Below, piece by piece: positions 4,138-11,607 of a DNA stretch of 64,000 nucleotides (its first letter is position 1; each line of letters starts with the position of its first letter). The stretch lies in IMG/VR virus record IMGVR_UViG_3300045988_134250, one strand, 5' to 3'. The DNA comes from a virus. Its lineage: Duplodnaviria; Heunggongvirae; Uroviricota; Caudoviricetes. The translations under genes and the position numbers were made by a program. Below the pieces are notes generated by a model. That model was given only the letters and a program-made list of their open reading frames with translations. It was not told the DNA's origin and did no database searches.

Positions 4138-5114
4138 TTGTTCGGCACTCCCAATATCATTCGTGTTGTGTAGCCTACGCGGTCTTCAAAGTGCGCAACA
4201 TTTTTTACTATCAGCTTACGGGGCATTGATTCATCAATGCGGTTTTCCTGGTCATAGCGGTATACGATAATCTCTATCACCATCCCCGGTTTTATATCAG
4301 GATTGCCTGCGACTTCTATATCCATTTTGGGGACGAGAGACAGCTGCATATTACGAAGAGTTTCCATATCAGAGTCGGATATATAACGCACTGGGAGTGA
4401 GCTATCGCCATATTCGACGTAGCCATCGGTCATGGAATACCCAACAAAACGATATTGATTCTTTGCTGTTGTCGCATGTTCCTGTTGGAGTAGGCGCATT
4501 TTGGACAAAGTGTATTCTGCTTTAGGGTTATTCCCCTCGTAGGTAAATGATGGCGTTTGCTTCATCAGATCAGCCAGGGTGTAAAAGTTAAATTCCCCCC
4601 GGCATACCCAACATAATGCACCTTTGTCTCGCGCTATCTCCGAAAGCATTTTTGACGGTTTGTCACCGGCATTCAGATGATATGTAACTGCGCGTTTTAG
4701 CACGCTGCTGGTAATTTTAAGCTTGCCGGAATATGCCTTGAATATAGCGTCTGGTGTTTTGTTGGTATGTAAATTTGTGCGCGGGGAGGGGATCTTAAAC
4801 CTGCGCACGTCTTCACTGACAGCAATAACGGTAACAACATCACCAGCCAGCATTGCAGACGTAACAAAGAAATCTGTTTTAAAAGTGCCTGCATTACCGT
4901 TTGGATCGCCCATTTCAGCCACCAGCGATGCACCGTATTTGGCTTTCCAGTCATCAATTACGGTGCCGGTAGCGTCATGAATTTCCAGTTTTAGCAAAGG
5001 GGCTTTGAGGCTGGTTTTTTCTACATATACTGCGGTAAAAATCCAGTCTCGTGGCACTTTGTTATCGTTAATGAGCACTGACTGTAGAAAATATTGTTGT
5101 AACTCCTGGGCCAC
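4134..5114 (-). CDS. Hypothetical protein
   Basis: 326-aa ORF, co-directional and tightly packed with neighbours; no recognisable motif. Confidence 0.5.
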   Translation of the reverse strand: MAQELQQYFLQSVLINDNKVPRDWIFTAVYVEKTSLKAPLLKLEIHDATGTVIDDWKAKYGASLVAEMGDPNGNAGTFKTDFFVTSAMLAGDVVTVIAVSEDVRRFKIPSPRTNLHTNKTPDAIFKAYSGKLKITSSVLKRAVTYHLNAGDKPSKMLSEIARDKGALCWVCRGEFNFYTLADLMKQTPSFTYEGNNPKAEYTLSKMRLLQQEHATTAKNQYRFVGYSMTDGYVEYGDSSLPVRYISDSDMETLRNMQLSLVPKMDIEVAGNPDIKPGMVIEIIVYRYDQENRIDESMPRKLIVKNVAHFEDRVGYTTRMILGVPNK

Positions 5115-5117
5115 TTA

Positions 5118-5885
5118 TCACCCCATAGATATCGAGGTTTCGGTAATAATACGTTTTGCGTCCAACTCCCATGCTGTGATCACGTCTGCAATCACACTTA
5201 TCGGCGCTTGTGTGGCATAAATACGCTCTTCTCCAATTGGTGCTGAAACATCCGTAAAGCCGACTTCTTTGGCATCCTGTATCGAGCAAATCAGCGGGAC
5301 CGGGACACGAACAAGGTGAGTGGTTGCTTCAAATTGTGTACCTGTCATCAGGCGAAGCCGTGCGCCCAGCGAATTACACATCAGACTCATGGTCGCTTTA
5401 TCAGTTGCCATTAACGTAACGTCATACGTCAGAATGGCCTGGGTGTATTCCAGTTCTGCTAAAGGCATTCCGGTATCCGGTTCGCAAAAACTGGCTACTT
5501 TTTTGCGGTCAATCTGCTGATCATCGTTGATATAATTGATATCCATATTGCGTGAGATATTGACCAGGGGGAGAGCATCCCGGTTAATGTTCTGGTTTTC
5601 AGGTTTTCTCCCTTGCCCGGCATTTGCGCGACGAACTGCTTTAAGAAACTCGATCGCATTGTCGAAACGGGCCACATAGACACGCTCTGCTGGTGGACGA
5701 TTCAGGAATGACGCAAAGCGTTTTTCTTCCGGCGCGGGGGCCACCAGTAAGATATCAGAAAAAATGTTGCTGATTAGCGTCGCAAACGCGTTATCCACGT
5801 TTTCAAAGCCCGTGGTCTGGAATTTTCCTGTGCGTGAGGTTTGCCATTCACCTGTTCGCGCCAGGAGGGTTTTATTTGAAGTCAT
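5118..5885 (-). CDS. Hypothetical protein
   Basis: 255-aa ORF, 4-nt gap/overlap spacing in the same operon. Confidence 0.5.
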   Translation of the reverse strand: MTSNKTLLARTGEWQTSRTGKFQTTGFENVDNAFATLISNIFSDILLVAPAPEEKRFASFLNRPPAERVYVARFDNAIEFLKAVRRANAGQGRKPENQNINRDALPLVNISRNMDINYINDDQQIDRKKVASFCEPDTGMPLAELEYTQAILTYDVTLMATDKATMSLMCNSLGARLRLMTGTQFEATTHLVRVPVPLICSIQDAKEVGFTDVSAPIGEERIYATQAPISVIADVITAWELDAKRIITETSISMG

Positions 5886-6685
5886 TCGATCACTCCGTTT
5901 TGAGTCGTATCAAAATTCCTGGCAGGTATGCAGTAGTAAAGCGAACCAACATGCTGTGTGCCGTAGCTAAAAATACGGTGCACGTACCACCAGCGGCGCG
6001 CTACGCCGTTTACCATCTCTTCATTCCATTCAAGAATTGAGCCGACGGGGACGTTATTTGCTGCAATACGCAGAATCAGAACATCATCGGTTAAGCCATC
6101 CTGCTCACCGTCTGCGTCAATCGCATGGAAAGAGTCACGCCCGTCAGGGTTATCCAGCACATAAACGATTTCAGGTTCCTGGTAAGTCAGTTCGCGTTGG
6201 TTGTTATCCAGTTCGGTGAATGACTCTTCTCCTGTTTCGTCGCTGACTACCCCATATGTGCCAACATCTGGTCGATATAAGAGAGCCTGAAACGCGTCTG
6301 GGCTGGATTCAATAATCAGCATCCAGTCTGCGCGGATTTGGTCGTTAAAGGCTTTATGCCCGTTATAGCGTGCTTTTAACTGTGGAGTCGGTTCTCTGCC
6401 AGCCAGGGAAGATGGAAGTATGGCTATATCTGATTCGCCAGCATCCGGAGTAAGGCCACCGTTGCTATCAGCAAAATTATCATGGCTATCAGCTTTGGCG
6501 GCGGGTTGCTCTTCCAGAATGCTGAATGAATCCGAACCGGTATTGCCATGTTCCGGCGCGCCTCCTGCATTCGCTTCAATCGGCGCTGGCGTTTCTCTCT
6601 GCGTGCTGTCATGTTCTGACTCCTTACTTGCCAGGTTTGCATCGTCAGCAAACCATTCGTCAAAACGGCCCATAAGCATCCTCAA
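5882..6685 (-). CDS. Hypothetical acidic protein
   Basis: 267-aa ORF, D/E-rich N-terminal half, first gene of the leftward operon ending at dmt. Confidence 0.5.
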   Translation of the reverse strand: MRMLMGRFDEWFADDANLASKESEHDSTQRETPAPIEANAGGAPEHGNTGSDSFSILEEQPAAKADSHDNFADSNGGLTPDAGESDIAILPSSLAGREPTPQLKARYNGHKAFNDQIRADWMLIIESSPDAFQALLYRPDVGTYGVVSDETGEESFTELDNNQRELTYQEPEIVYVLDNPDGRDSFHAIDADGEQDGLTDDVLILRIAANNVPVGSILEWNEEMVNGVARRWWYVHRIFSYGTQHVGSLYYCIPARNFDTTQNGVIE

Positions 6686-6835
6686 AGGTCGATCTGTCAG
6701 GTATCGAAAGGAAGATTTTCTGGAGATTGTGATTTTGGATGAAGGAGGGGGAATTCATAAAATGCACTTGCGCACAGTGCAACGGTGCGCTATAGTTATG
6801 GCATTCGGTAATCATCACGGAGGATCAAATGACTA

Positions 6836-7138
6836 ATGACCAAAAAAATTAACATAAAGGATTTCAGGGATGCGTGGCTTGATGATTTTTTTGAATTTTC
6901 AACACCACATAGAAAGATACCTCCTGATATTCATATGACATTGTCACGGAAGTTGGACATTATCAATGCCGCAACTACCTGTAAGGATTTAAGATCACCA
7001 CCAGGTAATCGGTATGAGGAACTGTCAGGGAAGCTAAATGGCTATTCATCAGTAAGGGTGAATAAGCAATATAGGTTAATTTTTAGGTGGGTTAACGGAA
7101 AGGCCGAGGACTTGTATCTCGACCCTCACAAATACTAA
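6836..7138 (+). CDS. higB: HigB-type toxin (plasmid maintenance system killer protein family)
   Basis: 100 aa; pattern F.D.WLDDFF...IP......L..L..L..A.....L..P.G.R.E.L.G.L.G..S.RVN..YRLIFRW.....ED..L..H typical of COG3549 killer proteins; RBS ggagga 10 nt upstream of ATG 6836. Confidence 0.7.
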   Translation: MTKKINIKDFRDAWLDDFFEFSTPHRKIPPDIHMTLSRKLDIINAATTCKDLRSPPGNRYEELSGKLNGYSSVRVNKQYRLIFRWVNGKAEDLYLDPHKY

Positions 7139-7208
7139 AACAGATACCCGGTTACGGACCGGGTTCTGACCAGAGTCCACTTAATACGCACGCTAGTAAG
7201 GGCAAAAA

Positions 7209-7547
7209 ATGAAACAGGCAACCAGAAAACCGACGACCGTAGGTGATATCCTGCTGTACGAATACCTGGAGCCGTTAGAGCTGAAGATCAACGAGTTAGC
7301 AGAAATACTTCATGTTCATCGTAACACCGTAAGTGCTCTTGTTAATAATAATCGTAAGCTAACGATGGATATGGCATATCGCCTGGCAAAAGCATTCGAT
7401 ACTTCTGTAGATTTTTGGATTAATCTTCAGACCGCAGTAGACCTGTGGGAAGTCGAAAATGATATGCGCGTTCAGGAAGAGTTAAGTCGTATCAATACTG
7501 CTGAAAAATTTATTTCTCAGCGGAACCTGAATAAAAAAGCAGCCTGA
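7209..7547 (+). CDS. higA: HigA-type antitoxin (XRE-family HTH, VapI-like)
   Basis: 112 aa; TVGDILLYEYLEPLELKINELAEILHVHRNTVSALVNNNRKLTMDMAYRLAKAFDTSVDFWINLQ matches the HigA/VapI HTH pattern; directly downstream of higB. Confidence 0.7.
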   Translation: MKQATRKPTTVGDILLYEYLEPLELKINELAEILHVHRNTVSALVNNNRKLTMDMAYRLAKAFDTSVDFWINLQTAVDLWEVENDMRVQEELSRINTAEKFISQRNLNKKAA

Positions 7548-7567
7548 TATAGTAAAACACATACAAA

Positions 7568-7597
7568 AAGCCCACTTAGCAAGTGGGCTTTCCTTTG
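7568..7597 (+). terminator. Hairpin terminator-like element after higA
   Basis: aagcccactt-agc-aagtgggctt stem-loop followed by tcctttg; ends 7 nt before next ATG (7604). Confidence 0.4.
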
Positions 7598-7603
7598 TAA
7601 TTA

Positions 7604-7963
7604 ATGAACATTAAACCTATCCGTACAGAACAAGATTATGAGGCCGCACTGCGTGCGGTCGAACCGATGTTCGATAACGAACCGGAAATGAATACTCCGG
7701 AAGGTGATTTCTTTGAGGTTATGTGTCTTCTCATTGAGGAGTACGAGAAAAAACATTACCCAATTGAGCCACCATCACCTATTGAGGCCATTAAATTCCG
7801 TATGGAACTGCAAGGACTGACCGTGAAGGATCTGGAACCGGCAATTGGTAAGTCAAACCGTGTTTACGAAGTGCTTAATGGGACACGAAATTTGACGTTA
7901 CCTATGATTCGTCGTTTACATGCCCAGTTTGGTATTCCACTGGAAAGCCTGGTTGGCGTTTGA
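7604..7963 (+). CDS. Second HigA-family antitoxin-like protein (C-terminal HTH), no adjacent cognate toxin
   Basis: 119 aa; C-terminal LTVKDLEPAIGKSNRVYEVLNGTRNLTLPMIRRLHAQFGIPLESL resembles E. coli K-12 HigA C-terminal HTH (...KLTLEHAKKLATRFGI... as recalled). Confidence 0.55.
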   Translation: MNIKPIRTEQDYEAALRAVEPMFDNEPEMNTPEGDFFEVMCLLIEEYEKKHYPIEPPSPIEAIKFRMELQGLTVKDLEPAIGKSNRVYEVLNGTRNLTLPMIRRLHAQFGIPLESLVGV

Positions 7964-7968
7964 GTTTT

Positions 7969-7994
7969 GCGGTCTGGATGACCGCTGTTTTTAT
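7969..7994 (+). terminator. Rho-independent terminator
   Basis: gcggtc-tggat-gaccgc hairpin followed by tgtttttat. Confidence 0.55.
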
Positions 7995-8026
7995 AAAAAA
8001 TAGATACTAGAAATTTGGTAGCATAT

Positions 8027-8806
8027 ATGAGTACAGATTCATCAGTAAAGAAGACATCTGAATCAGATAAAGAAAATGAGTCCGTTGTTGATTCCGTCAA
8101 GAATACAATGGAATATGTTATAAAAGATAAAGTATTTAATAAGCTTTTTGCATATATTTTTATATCTTTTCTGGTTGTTAACTGGAGAGATATATTAATT
8201 TTGTTCAAATCAAAAGAAGATGTTCTATATACTCTGTCAATAGTTTTTACCGGTGAAAAAATACAATTTCTTGATGGCGAGATTTTACCTCCTTGGTTTG
8301 CCCACTTTTTCTTGCCGTTTTTCTATGGTGTGATTGCGTCGATTGTGGCACCAGTAATTACACTTGCGGTATCTTGCATTACAACTAAGGTGTACTATAA
8401 AATAAAAATTTTGGACAATAAAACAGACGAAAACGAGAAAGAGAAATTAGCAAAAAGAGCCAAGAAAAGAGCTGAGCGTGAAATAGAGGCTAGCTATAGC
8501 CAACAAAAGCTGGATGAAAGAAAAAAAGAACTGGAAGACATTTTAAACAAAATAGAAGATGAAAAAGAAAAATATGATAAAATGAAAGAAAGGTTTGATG
8601 ATGCCATAACGCTTACATATAAAAATATTCACATTTTGCCTACTCTGTATGAGAATAGGAAATGTAAAATTGAAACTCCGCAGGATTTATATGATTTTAT
8701 TGCAGCAATAAAGAAAACATCATTCTATAGTACTGATTTTAATGAATTGTTCTCTGATATTTCTCGATTGTATTCTGAAATGCAAACTGATTTATCAGAA
8801 AAGTGA
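8027..8806 (+). CDS. AT-rich membrane protein with two predicted TM helices and a long charged coiled coil (function unknown)
   Basis: ORF-track 8015..8806 (TTG); first ATG at 8027. Hydrophobic stretches LFAYIFISFLVVNW and FFLPFFYGVIASIVAPVITLAVSCI, then KE-rich heptad region; markedly lower GC than flanks. Confidence 0.55.
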   Translation: MSTDSSVKKTSESDKENESVVDSVKNTMEYVIKDKVFNKLFAYIFISFLVVNWRDILILFKSKEDVLYTLSIVFTGEKIQFLDGEILPPWFAHFFLPFFYGVIASIVAPVITLAVSCITTKVYYKIKILDNKTDENEKEKLAKRAKKRAEREIEASYSQQKLDERKKELEDILNKIEDEKEKYDKMKERFDDAITLTYKNIHILPTLYENRKCKIETPQDLYDFIAAIKKTSFYSTDFNELFSDISRLYSEMQTDLSEK

Positions 8807-8841
8807 AAGCCTGGCATAGACCACCAGGCTATATGTGTGGT

Positions 8842-10035
8842 TTATGCTTTTTTTACATACGCCATAAACATTTTTTCAGCATGTTCTTGTGGCGTTCCTG
8901 CCATGACAAGCGCATCAATAAACGCCTGCTTCTTCAGTGCGAACTGATCGGCCAGGCGTTGCTGAAGCTCCTTGTTTTTCTGTTTCTCACGTTGCAACGC
9001 CGCTTCTTTTGCTGCCGCCCGTTTTTTCTGTGCGTCTGACAACTTTCTGGCCTTGGTCAGTTGGTCACGTAGCTTGTCAATCTTGCCGTTGTCCTTTGCC
9101 AGTTTTGTGCTTAAAGCGGCCTGGCGCTTCTGATAGAGTCTCCATTCTCGCTTGGCAGCGTCAACGTTCGTTTTACTGCTACGATTGCGATTAAACTCCT
9201 TCTCGTCTTCTTTTGAGAAGTGTTTGGTTGTACGGCGGCGATCGTCACCAAATGCAATTTGCGTTGCAGCCTTTTGTAGTGCACGAGCAATACTCATTTG
9301 CCAACTTGCGGACTGTAACCGCGTCATTGAGTGGATCACGTGTTTACAGGCGACGCCTTGTAGCTTAGGGTTACGAACTTTTGGATAGGCGTATTCTTTT
9401 GGCGGGGCCAGGGCAAAGTTACCCGCAGTAGCGATGTAACGATACCAGTATTGATGACGACCACAGTCACAATCGAAAGACACTCGCCCGGCGCACAGTG
9501 ATTTAGTGATTTTGAGAGCTGATTTATCGTCTTCTGCGATGTCATCGACCATCTGATCCCATTCTTCAAAGCGTATCCGGACGATATGGTGCTGGTGGAC
9601 GGATATATCCGATGCTTCTACGCGGATATTAATCACGTTGTGGCGAAGAGATACGGGGGTAGCTCTTTTGATACCAGATCCGTCATCCACGGCGTTATTT
9701 GCACGCTTAATATCGATTGCCTGGCTGGATGCCACCAGCTGGGCGTATGTGATGCCAGCCGTCTTGCTGTCATATTTTTCGCGTGTTTTACTCCGTAGCT
9801 TTTCGAAACCTTTCAGGTCGTCTCGCGTGAAGAACGTGCCGCCTTTTTTCTTCCCTAACTTGAGAATATCTTCGGCGGATTTGTTCCTCAGTCTACCTGG
9901 CGTCAGCGTCCGGTGAGCTTGTCGGCGCTTACGGGTTTGTTCTTTCCTGATAAGCTCGAATATACGCGTGAAGTCCTTAGAGGACAGACCGTCAGTGATA
10001 TAGCGCCCGTCCTGGTTTTTCAGGAAATCAGGCAT
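8842..10035 (-). CDS. SWIM-type zinc-finger protein with lysine-rich coiled-coil C-terminus
   Basis: 397 aa; CxC-x(n)-CxH arrangement FDCDCGRHQ...GVACKHVIH; C-terminal K/R/E/Q-rich tail. Confidence 0.5.
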   Translation of the reverse strand: MPDFLKNQDGRYITDGLSSKDFTRIFELIRKEQTRKRRQAHRTLTPGRLRNKSAEDILKLGKKKGGTFFTRDDLKGFEKLRSKTREKYDSKTAGITYAQLVASSQAIDIKRANNAVDDGSGIKRATPVSLRHNVINIRVEASDISVHQHHIVRIRFEEWDQMVDDIAEDDKSALKITKSLCAGRVSFDCDCGRHQYWYRYIATAGNFALAPPKEYAYPKVRNPKLQGVACKHVIHSMTRLQSASWQMSIARALQKAATQIAFGDDRRRTTKHFSKEDEKEFNRNRSSKTNVDAAKREWRLYQKRQAALSTKLAKDNGKIDKLRDQLTKARKLSDAQKKRAAAKEAALQREKQKNKELQQRLADQFALKKQAFIDALVMAGTPQEHAEKMFMAYVKKA

Positions 10036-10357
10036 TTTCTATCTCCGGTTCCGCGCTTGCGTAATCACGGATCTTGTTCCTCAGCCATGCCACATCAGGA
10101 AGAGTTAACGTGGTCCCTGCGGGCATTTCTTCCATTTCTGACTCATGGCCCACCAGCACCCGGAATACCCAGCGCAAATCTGCATTGCCATACGCCCGGT
10201 AGGCTGCAAGGTCTGAACGATATACTTCATCAATCTTTATCGTGTACTGGAAATTATCAGAGTGATACTCCGATACCCGCTTAATCATTTCCTGGTGAAA
10301 CAGCGCACGAAAAATATCGTCTTCAATGTACCTGTCGTCGAGTCTGCTATAGCCCAT
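10028..10357 (-). CDS. Hypothetical protein
   Basis: 109-aa ORF overlapping the start of the downstream ORF by 8 nt (coupled). Confidence 0.45.
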   Translation of the reverse strand: MGYSRLDDRYIEDDIFRALFHQEMIKRVSEYHSDNFQYTIKIDEVYRSDLAAYRAYGNADLRWVFRVLVGHESEMEEMPAGTTLTLPDVAWLRNKIRDYASAEPEIENA

Positions 10358-10550
10358 AACAAAGCCTCTCAGTCATAACCTGGGGGAAACTGTATGCAGG
10401 GTGTGAAATGTGAGAAACAGACAGGCCACCAGTTCAGGGGGATGTGGTTCATAAATCCCCTCACTGGTGACAAGTGACTTTCATTAATCTTTGTGCGGGG
10501 GCCAGCTTCATTTGCTGGCATTAGATTAAAAATTAAACGGAGTGAATGAC

Positions 10551-10685: not shown

Positions 10686-11339
10686 TCAAAGTATCACGGT
10701 ATCTTCATCAACTTCTTTCCCAGTCAGCGACTTTGGCTGGGAGGTGCCTGCTTTAACTTTTTCATGCCCAATAATGGACAGGAACGAAGCGAGTATGCCT
10801 GTTTTTTGCTCTTTCTCGACTGTACCGGTCATCTGCTCTACGTAATCCGCACTGGCAACATTGTGGTATACGGTCGCGTAGCAACACAGGATCATCAAAA
10901 TATGTTCCGGCCTAATATCCTGCCAGTTCACCCGGTAAACTTCTTCTCCGTTACCGTTGTATTCGGTGTCAACGATGGAGTCGGGAATTTCGAAAGCACC
11001 TTTATTGTTTTGCGGCAGGGATAATAGCTTCTGGAGTTTTAGCTCTCTGTATCTTTCCATCCCTACGATGATCGCAGCTCTGCCGTCGGCATGACGTGTC
11101 TTGAGTGTTACCTGGCTTGCTCCGGTGCCAGCGGAGATCGTTGGCGTAATTTCGTCTACCAGCACCTTAAATTTGCTTTTCCGCAGGGCTGCTATAGCTG
11201 GAGGAATCTTTTGCTTTTGTTCCAATGCTGACGCGGGAAGGGGTTTTACTTCGTTAATCACGAGAGCACCGTCTTTCAGTATTGCAGTGAGCATTTGCGG
11301 TTTGCTGGTGGTCAGGCTGAATATTGCTATCTTCTCCAT
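10686..11339 (-). CDS. Hypothetical protein
   Basis: ORF-track 10686..11381 (GTG); in-frame ATG at 11339 has strong RBS ggaggaagg, giving 217 aa starting MEKIAIFSL. Confidence 0.5.
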   Translation of the reverse strand: MEKIAIFSLTTSKPQMLTAILKDGALVINEVKPLPASALEQKQKIPPAIAALRKSKFKVLVDEITPTISAGTGASQVTLKTRHADGRAAIIVGMERYRELKLQKLLSLPQNNKGAFEIPDSIVDTEYNGNGEEVYRVNWQDIRPEHILMILCCYATVYHNVASADYVEQMTGTVEKEQKTGILASFLSIIGHEKVKAGTSQPKSLTGKEVDEDTVIL

Positions 11340-11607
11340 TGTCCTTCCTCCACGGATGACGGATACAAAAAAAGGCCGCACATGGCGGCCTGCTTTGGCG
11401 TTATGACTCCCTACCGCGCTTCGGCTGAAAGTTAATCGTCAAAAGAACCTTCAACGGGAGCCGTTAGCGCGATGGATTATGTGCAGTTTGTGATTTCCAA
11501 AATAGTGTCAACCACTTTTTGTGGATTTTATTTTTTGACCGAAATTTGGCCTAAATCATGTTGATGTAGTTGATTGTTTTTGTAACATAAAACTTCATTT
11601 TGTTTAC

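Follow-up and report, generated by a model that had tools for sequence, protein, structure and literature searches.

This work concerns a block of four genes at positions 6836-8806 of a 64,000-nt stretch of viral DNA (IMG/VR record IMGVR_UViG_3300045988_134250; Caudoviricetes), the whole of which is called the window here. The window is a close relative of the Escherichia phage-plasmid D6; over 5800-10400, 85% of the sequence aligned to D6 at 97.4% identity by megablast, and blastn gave 94-95% over longer alignments. All four open reading frames (ORFs) lie on the + strand amid genes of the - strand (Table 1). Genes 1 and 2 are a HigB/HigA toxin-antitoxin (TA) pair, gene 3 encodes a HigA-family antitoxin without a toxin, and gene 4, which is AT-rich (~30% GC), encodes a protein with two transmembrane (TM) segments and a long helix. 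In all these points, as well as in the terminators (hairpin plus T-run) after genes 2 and 3, a preliminary description made from the letters of the window proved to be right.

The surroundings of the block differ from what had been described. According to the D6 annotation, its left neighbours are homologues of the P1 baseplate and tail genes 5, 6, 24, and 7, and to its right lie homologues of P1 genes 25, 26, and mat. The supposed dmt-rdgC operon on the left is thus not the flank, the rdgC homologue being located four genes further left, and the supposed SWIM protein on the right is the gene 25 tail homologue, which carries a CxC...CxH string (FDCDCGRH...ACKHVIH) and has no Pfam domain at E ≤ 0.01, SWIM included. 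In P1, genes 7 and 25 are separated by only 4 nt without an insert, and they are likewise adjacent in Cronobacter phage JK004. Because of this gene order, the block is evidently a genuine insertion which splits the late tail operon (26-25/7-24-6-5) and is transcribed against it. Its accessory character, as proposed before, holds: far from being identical in all P1-family genomes, the block is absent from P1 and JK004, and the content of the slot varies among D6-like elements.

Table 1. Features of the 7/25 slot of the window and its flanks (nt, nucleotides; aa, amino acids; HTH, helix-turn-helix).
Feature	Position	Strand	Basis or remark
Left flank, P1 tail gene 7 homologue (D6 orf69)	5882..6685	-	D6 annotation; 97-100% aa identity among close D6-like plasmids
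Swapped-in cassette: promoter region, higB, higA, hairpin	6734..7595	+	Junction alignments of window vs class I locus L041; identity profile
Gene 1, HigB toxin (RelE superfamily, PF05015), 100 aa	6836..7138	+	Pfam; phrog_3066 'toxin of TA system'
Gene 2, HigA antitoxin (TIGR02607, Xre-type HTH), 112 aa	7209..7547	+	NCBIfam
Hairpin terminator after higA, 11-13 bp stem	7567..7591	+	12 nt before gene 3 start codon
Gene 3, orphaned HigA-type antitoxin, 119 aa: N-terminal ~60-aa domain and C-terminal HTH	7604..7963	+	5IFG/5YCL match
Hairpin terminator after gene 3	7969..7985	+	Hairpin plus T-run scan
Gene 4, hypervariable AT-rich, 259 aa: two TM, long helix, small C-terminal helical domain	8027..8806	+	phrog_8191; D6 orf73 family
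Hairpin between convergent 3' ends of gene 4 and gene 25 homologue	8808..8830		Scored on - strand
Right flank, P1 tail gene 25 homologue (D6 orf74)	8842..10035	-	D6 annotation; 97-99% identity among close siblings

We compared 30 D6-like loci, 8 from public phage or plasmid records and 22 from IMG/VR, and found four configurations of the slot. Class I loci (L041-L043, L045, L046) contain a HigB of the PF09907 family, a copy of gene 3 that is 98-99% identical to that of the window, and gene 4. Class II loci, which include the window, D6, and others, contain the PF05015-type HigB, HigA, an intact gene 3, and gene 4. Class III, the commonest in PLSDB, has the content of class II with gene 3 cut to 66 aa. 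Class IV has a different pair, HigB2-HigA2, followed by gene 4; it is found in Enterobacter phage-plasmids, and Klebsiella IncF plasmids have it with gene 4 truncated. The locus is present in 95 of 5,426 complete E. coli genomes, in every case on a plasmid, with the PF05015 pair in 76 of these carriers and the PF09907 toxin in about 19-21. None of 21 hits corresponded to a close copy of the latter toxin on an E. coli chromosome.

Class I and class II loci share their sequence up to ~6733 and again from ~7596, with the right junction at 7596-7603. Since the shared sequence stops and resumes at these points, the alignments place a cassette of ~860 bp exactly where the siblings have the old promoter and the PF09907 higB gene. 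The gene 3 copies on the two sides of this exchange have had different fates. The ratio of nonsynonymous to synonymous polymorphism (pN/pS) of gene 3 is 0.01 in class I, where the gene follows its toxin, and 0.10 in class II, where it is orphaned, and in the swapped background gene 3 has been inactivated in three independent ways, namely by the truncation to 66 aa, by a frameshift (L039), and by a stop at codon 69 (L040). The retention of the cognate toxin by the siblings, together with the three inactivations and the ten-fold rise of pN/pS after the swap, makes it a well supported conclusion, as far as sequence comparison goes, that gene 3 is the relic of a TA cassette swap. The direction of change, from class I to class II to class III, is the parsimonious one, because this type of HigA pairs with PF09907 toxins everywhere else and class II is the sole background in which gene 3 decays. 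Replacement of a TA module in situ, leaving a decaying orphan antitoxin behind, is a modest evolutionary observation.

The origin of gene 3 can be traced through its relatives. The protein has a C-terminal HTH_3 domain in Pfam and aligns over residues 6-112 with E. coli K-12 HigA (5IFG chain B/5YCL; E 2.5e-7 in phmmer), and several of its 7,997 homologues at E ≤ 1e-5 are named HigA by their source. Relatives with 82-87% identity, from chromosomes and lambdoid prophages (Kluyvera, Citrobacter, and Salmonella lambdoid prophages), follow genes for a 100-aa PF09907 HigB at a distance of 4-5 nt, and homology of the window to such intact pairs begins exactly at the gene 3 ATG (7604). The cognate toxin gene is absent upstream of gene 3 in the window and present in all five class I loci. 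Gene 3 lacks a Shine-Dalgarno sequence, and its translation is no longer coupled to that of a toxin gene upstream. The system thus resembles HigB/HigA of E. coli K-12 (YgjN/YgjM; PF09907 with a two-domain HigA; 5IFG) in that the alignment spans both gene 3 domains and in that the 82-99% identical relatives of gene 3 keep the upstream 100-aa PF09907 toxin with the 4-5 nt spacing, and differs from it in that the toxin gene and the operon promoter of the window have been replaced by an unrelated higBA cassette. K-12 HigA itself is only a distant relative of gene 3.

A second affiliation was considered for gene 3 and rejected. The protein matches the first 119 of the 402 positions of the PADLOC model PD-Lambda-2_B with an E value of 1.3e-41, and PD-lambda-2, like the block described here, is a multi-gene locus derived from HigBA and carried on mobile elements (Vassallo et al. 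2022, PMC9519451). The B component of that system consists of a HigA-like HTH and a peptidase domain at the C terminus; components A and C are also required (PMC9519451). Gene 3 ends at residue 119, after the HTH and without the peptidase domain, and genes 1, 2, and 4 gave no match to PD-Lambda-2_A or PD-Lambda-2_C at E ≤ 1; because of these missing parts the block is not a PD-lambda-2 system.

The pair that now occupies the place of the PF09907 toxin appears, by family membership, to be a canonical and ordinary HigBA TA pair. Gene 1 matches PF05015 over its entire length (profile positions 1-91 of 91; E 9e-35; 119.4 bits against a cut-off of 27), its nearest solved chain being 6F8S_B (deposited as 'Putative Killer protein'; E 2.6e-14), and gene 2 matches TIGR02607 with an E value of 8e-30 (102.5 bits; curated cut-off 47.7). 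As in the HigBA systems of the Rts1 and GraTA kind, both models (PF05015/TIGR02607) are matched at full length, the toxin gene precedes the antitoxin gene, which is the inverted order for TA systems, here with a 70-nt spacer, and the pair resides on a low-copy plasmid-prophage that also carries phd/doc; nothing unusual was detected in the pair of the window. HigB and HigA are 99-100% identical across sibling plasmids. The gene pair is already annotated as an addiction module in D6, where higBA has been described as a second post-segregational killing system beside phd/doc (PMC6799933).

Over 108 residues, gene 2 also shares ~78% identity with YbaQ of E. coli (PDB 2EBY), a chromosomal K-12 protein that is not known to have a toxin partner. 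Because of this similarity, the host chromosome may hold a cross-neutralising, anti-addiction copy directed against the HigB of the phage-plasmid.

In contrast to the exchangeable TA modules, gene 4 is the only constant occupant of the slot. In a distant D6-like lineage, whose gp25 is 72-73%, gp26 67-70%, and gp7 35-60% identical to those of the window, the slot holds a gene 4 homologue (23-26% identity) alone, on the opposite strand, and no TA genes. Since gene 4 stands alone there, it is to all appearances older than the TA modules at this site and is not a recent arrival from elsewhere. Among close siblings, gp7, HigB, HigA, and gp25 are 97-100% identical, whereas gene 4 is only 36-56% identical, the nearest other allele reaching 63%. 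Nucleotide identity collapses over 7975-8825 and on either side recovers gradually, across the 3' half of gene 3 and across the 3' end of gene 25; because of these gradients, the collapse reads as the signature of old alleles exchanged by recombination. The end of the gene 25 homologue that encodes the C terminus and adjoins gene 4 is accordingly 94-95% identical at the nucleotide level among siblings, more divergent than the rest of that gene. The gene 4 ORF is intact in 27 of the 30 loci and disrupted in three, and the 27 intact copies fall into nine allele classes (<90% identity to each other; 33-79% pairwise). One and the same allele was found behind both class I and class II TA modules. 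The allele of the window is rare, being present in 3 of 72,556 plasmids in PLSDB and in 3 of the 5,426 E. coli genomes. Within alleles pN/pS is 0.2-0.4, and it is 0.43 between the window and the 63% allele.

The ORF list starts gene 4 at a TTG (8015), whereas the family alignment favours the ATG at 8027. Hydrophobic segments are found at roughly residues 40-60 and 89-124 and are followed by a predicted helix of 74 residues (137-210). Conserved parts of the family include an amphipathic helix, an invariant Asn-Trp in TM1, a KSK-x-D-I...TL motif, and invariant Pro97, Gly101, and Pro109 in TM2; the variable parts are the N-terminal tail, the second half of the loop between the TM segments, where indels occur, the long helix, and the C-terminal domain. 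The charge distribution, read by the positive-inside rule, suggests that both termini face the cytoplasm (N-in/C-in). An AlphaFold2 model of moderate quality (pLDDT 69, pTM 0.31) is all-helical.

Homologues of gene 4 are few. Word-indexed searching gave five proteins and profile searching gave 24; when 1.84 billion cluster representatives were searched exhaustively with HMMER, 30 clusters were obtained, none with an informative name or domain. Among 50,697 GenBank phage records the family occurs in D6 only, and outside these it is found on Enterobacterales plasmids, in a Pectobacterium island beside an AlpA-type gene, and in decayed phage-plasmid remnants; in one Citrobacter plasmid a homologue directly follows TacA-TacT. 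A closer gene 4 profile found no loci in genome contigs, and the scan of viral contigs in IMG/VR yielded the 22 loci mentioned above. Matches to PADLOC, Pfam, or NCBIfam models were at chance level (AbiLii, E 0.74; SMC-like models in single members), and a '2TM effector' model which matched 2 of 21 family members at E 4e-4 was counted as a chance-level coiled-coil match as well. The preliminary description had regarded the block as a site for an undescribed defence or counter-defence module. This may hold for gene 4, which matches no known family, and fails for the higBA pair, which was already described as the addiction module of D6. Likewise, the suggested likeness of gene 4 to abortive-infection or superinfection-exclusion factors has circumstantial points in its favour, namely a membrane protein, hypervariability, and an orientation opposite to the surrounding late operon, and neither homology nor fold adds to them; the idea is plausible.

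Taken together, we hold with moderate confidence that the block is a layered accessory slot in the late tail operon, made up of an old gene 4, TA modules that are swapped, and the relic gene 3. The oldest and constant layer would be gene 4, an inner-membrane protein with both termini in the cytoplasm, two TM helices, a long helix on the cytoplasmic side, and a C-terminal domain of small size, which would act in the lysogen as a factor of the superinfection-exclusion or abortive-infection type, its variable parts recognising the incoming element and its conserved membrane core acting as the executor. The second layer would be a TA module of type II that lies upstream of gene 4 and most probably maintains the plasmid-prophage by post-segregational killing, as is presumed for higBA. 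Different lineages would have different modules, the older one in the E. coli lineage being PF09907-HigB with gene 3; in the sub-lineage of the window the ~860-bp cassette would have replaced the old promoter and toxin gene and left gene 3 with neither a toxin nor a promoter of its own. Gene 3 would perhaps have been useful for a short time, by shielding the host of the new plasmid from the toxin of the displaced, incompatible siblings, and would now be decaying. A residual or transient role of this anti-addiction kind against class I siblings is conceivable.

The tentative proposal that lysogens express gene 4 and that its product works as a membrane factor of the exclusion or abortive-infection type, with specificity conferred by its variable regions, is in our view somewhat short of probable. 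Prophage 'morons' that encode superinfection-exclusion proteins and are embedded in tail operons, such as HK97 gp15, offer a parallel: as in those cases, a gene for an inner-membrane protein lies between tail genes, has its own terminators and an atypical composition, and is present in a patchy manner. Unlike the gp15-type proteins, to which it has no sequence or fold similarity, the gene 4 product is larger, with a putatively cytoplasmic helical region of 140 residues, is hypervariable, and is also encoded on non-phage plasmids. A bolder version, in which gene 4 would be the first member of a family not described before, whose single genes encode anti-phage or superinfection-exclusion factors of the inner membrane, and would be an old resident of the 7/25 junction with many divergent alleles kept by frequency-dependent selection, and gene 3 would be, now or until recently, a weapon in plasmid-plasmid competition that confers immunity to the post-segregational killing of displaced siblings, seems to us rather doubtful.

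Several observations weigh against the layered slot and the role proposed for gene 4. The copy of gene 3 in the window is intact, and a pN/pS of 0.10 indicates that some constraint on the gene remains, although part of this constraint may come by recombination from toxin-linked alleles; moreover, the direction from class I to class II depends on parsimony. No convincing sigma-70 promoter was found for gene 4 or for gene 3. Gene 4 has no family in Pfam, NCBIfam, or PADLOC and belongs only to phrog_8191, a family with no assigned function, and a fold search with the moderate AlphaFold2 model as query gave no meaningful match. Its pN/pS is below 1, which does not demonstrate positive selection, and its fast evolution is by itself compatible with weak constraint.

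Among the alternatives, it is unlikely, albeit conceivable on several grounds, that gene 3 is an orphan antitoxin maintained by selection, either against the PF09907 HigB of competing incompatible D6-like plasmids, which could then be displaced without death of the host, or against TA defences encoded by prophages or the chromosome during infection. The very toxin that is cognate to it occurs on the same backbone in about 20 of the 95 E. coli carriers; the gene is intact not only in the window but also in D6 and most class II loci, with pN/pS still at 0.10; and even the truncated form retains the N-terminal ~60 residues as an ORF. For neutralisation of the toxin by the modular antitoxin VcHigA2, a peptide from the N terminus is sufficient (PMC5416850). 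Orphan antitoxins with which phages overcome TA defence have been documented (bioRxiv 10.1101/2024.07.11.602962), and the concept of anti-addiction has been put forward (PMC2654758). However, the three independent inactivations, with the truncated form being the commonest, the position of gene 3 without its own promoter 12 nt behind a strong hairpin, the lack of a Shine-Dalgarno sequence, the loss of coupling to the toxin gene, and the absence of close copies of the cognate toxin from E. coli chromosomes (0 of 21 hits) all run counter to it. The earlier suggestion that gene 3 could neutralise toxin-based abortive infection of the host is weakly supported, and the relic of a TA swap is the better explanation of this gene. 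We consider it very improbable that genes 3 and 4 form a functional pair, in which the HTH protein represses or neutralises a toxic membrane effector, be it TA-like or, together with HigB, a tripartite abortive-infection system. Homologues of gene 4 do lie directly downstream of TA genes, in the same orientation, in four contexts (PF05015 higBA with gene 3; PF09907 higB with gene 3; HigB2-HigA2 on Enterobacter and Klebsiella plasmids; TacA-TacT on the Citrobacter plasmid), and PD-lambda-2 is a precedent for a three-gene defence system derived from HigB/HigA (PMC9519451). On the other hand, the commonest configuration of the slot lacks the HTH of gene 3 and has an intact gene 4, the whole distant D6-like lineage and several other elements have gene 4 without any adjoining TA or HTH gene, a terminator separates genes 3 and 4, and one allele of gene 4 is found behind different TA types. 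An obligate pair is contradicted by the occurrence of gene 4 alone and was ruled out on that account and by the copies behind a truncated gene 3.

For gene 4, a distinctly unlikely alternative is that it serves the element itself, in lysis timing as a holin- or antiholin-like protein, in DNA ejection or entry, or in association of the plasmid with the membrane, and that it diverges because a helical protein of low complexity is weakly constrained. Such a function would fit the position of gene 4, strictly conserved in the tail/baseplate operon across the deep divergence of D6-like elements, its pN/pS below 1, and the fact that its most divergent part is a Lys/Glu-rich helix tolerant of change; class II holins, too, have two TM segments. 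Against this, gene 4 is oriented opposite to the late operon with terminators on both sides, P1, P7, and JK004 lack it and build tails of the same type, and it is intact in an element with a broken gp25 (L052) and occurs in non-phage contexts. The divergence, moreover, extends by indels to the putative periplasmic loop, and such a narrowly confined island of divergence, with recombination gradients, is what loci subject to balancing or diversifying selection typically show.

D6-like phage-plasmids occur widely in E. coli, Shigella, and Salmonella. In one survey they had almost no recognised defence systems, a complete one being found in a single E. coli D6-like element (bioRxiv 10.1101/2025.09.12.675607). 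What was already known at this locus is the HigBA pair; what is uncharacterised is the gene 4 family, marked out by its population genetics. Gene 4, always found at one site, intact, and far more divergent than the rest of a near-identical backbone, is an easily cloned candidate for exclusion of rivals or protection of the host. The TA part is functionally ordinary, yet it offers a clean natural series, from toxin plus antitoxin through cassette swap and orphan antitoxin to truncated or frameshifted relic, which is suited to testing anti-addiction ideas and the rate of antitoxin decay after loss of the toxin.

Composition and regulatory signals were surveyed across the region. The GC content is ~0.49 in the flanks, 0.39-0.45 in genes 1-3, and 0.29-0.37 in gene 4. 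The scan for hairpins with T-runs found nine terminator-like sites in the region as compared to 1.6 ± 1.3 in shuffled sequence, whereas sigma-70 sites were no more numerous than in shuffles. Searching Rfam over the block gave sub-threshold terminator-like matches only, with no family at threshold, and the P1 C1 operator consensus had zero matches anywhere in the window.

TA genes related to those of the slot were seen at other positions. JK004 (L049, 1028-1755) has a HigB2-HigA2 pair, 86% identical to that of the Enterobacter 7/25 slot, upstream of mat and gene 26; because the pair lies at another position there, TA cassettes evidently move between sites as well as lineages. In Salmonella lambdoid prophages (L011-L014, 2693-3360), a pair of PF09907-HigB and a gene-3-like HigA lies between the minor tail and tape-measure genes as a moron of opposite orientation, which is a second case of this TA type inside a tail operon. 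About 55 Klebsiella plasmids (L017, K. pneumoniae IncFIB, 4216-5426) carry HigB2-HigA2 followed by a gene 4 homologue cut to its membrane half of 137 aa; these copies have the look of a piece of the phage-plasmid slot that was moved into large plasmids of non-phage type, beside insertion sequence (IS) elements.

Some other plasmids look like decaying D6-like elements. In L052 (3251-4215), gp25 is broken into pieces and the gene 4 homologue is intact. On an Enterobacter kobei plasmid (L024; 2891-3862, 4747-5946), gp25 and the gene 4 homologue are both intact and gp7 gave a weak match over part of its length (35%, q5-212); unrelated C-terminal sequence is present at this gp7 match, and a gene for a D12-class methyltransferase adjoins it.

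To the right of the block, the mat/simB region of the window occupies 10686-11381 and beyond. The neighbourhood of simB, a superinfection-exclusion gene, is another variable region among D6-like plasmids, and pSL26_91 has five hypothetical genes in place of simB (PMC6799933).

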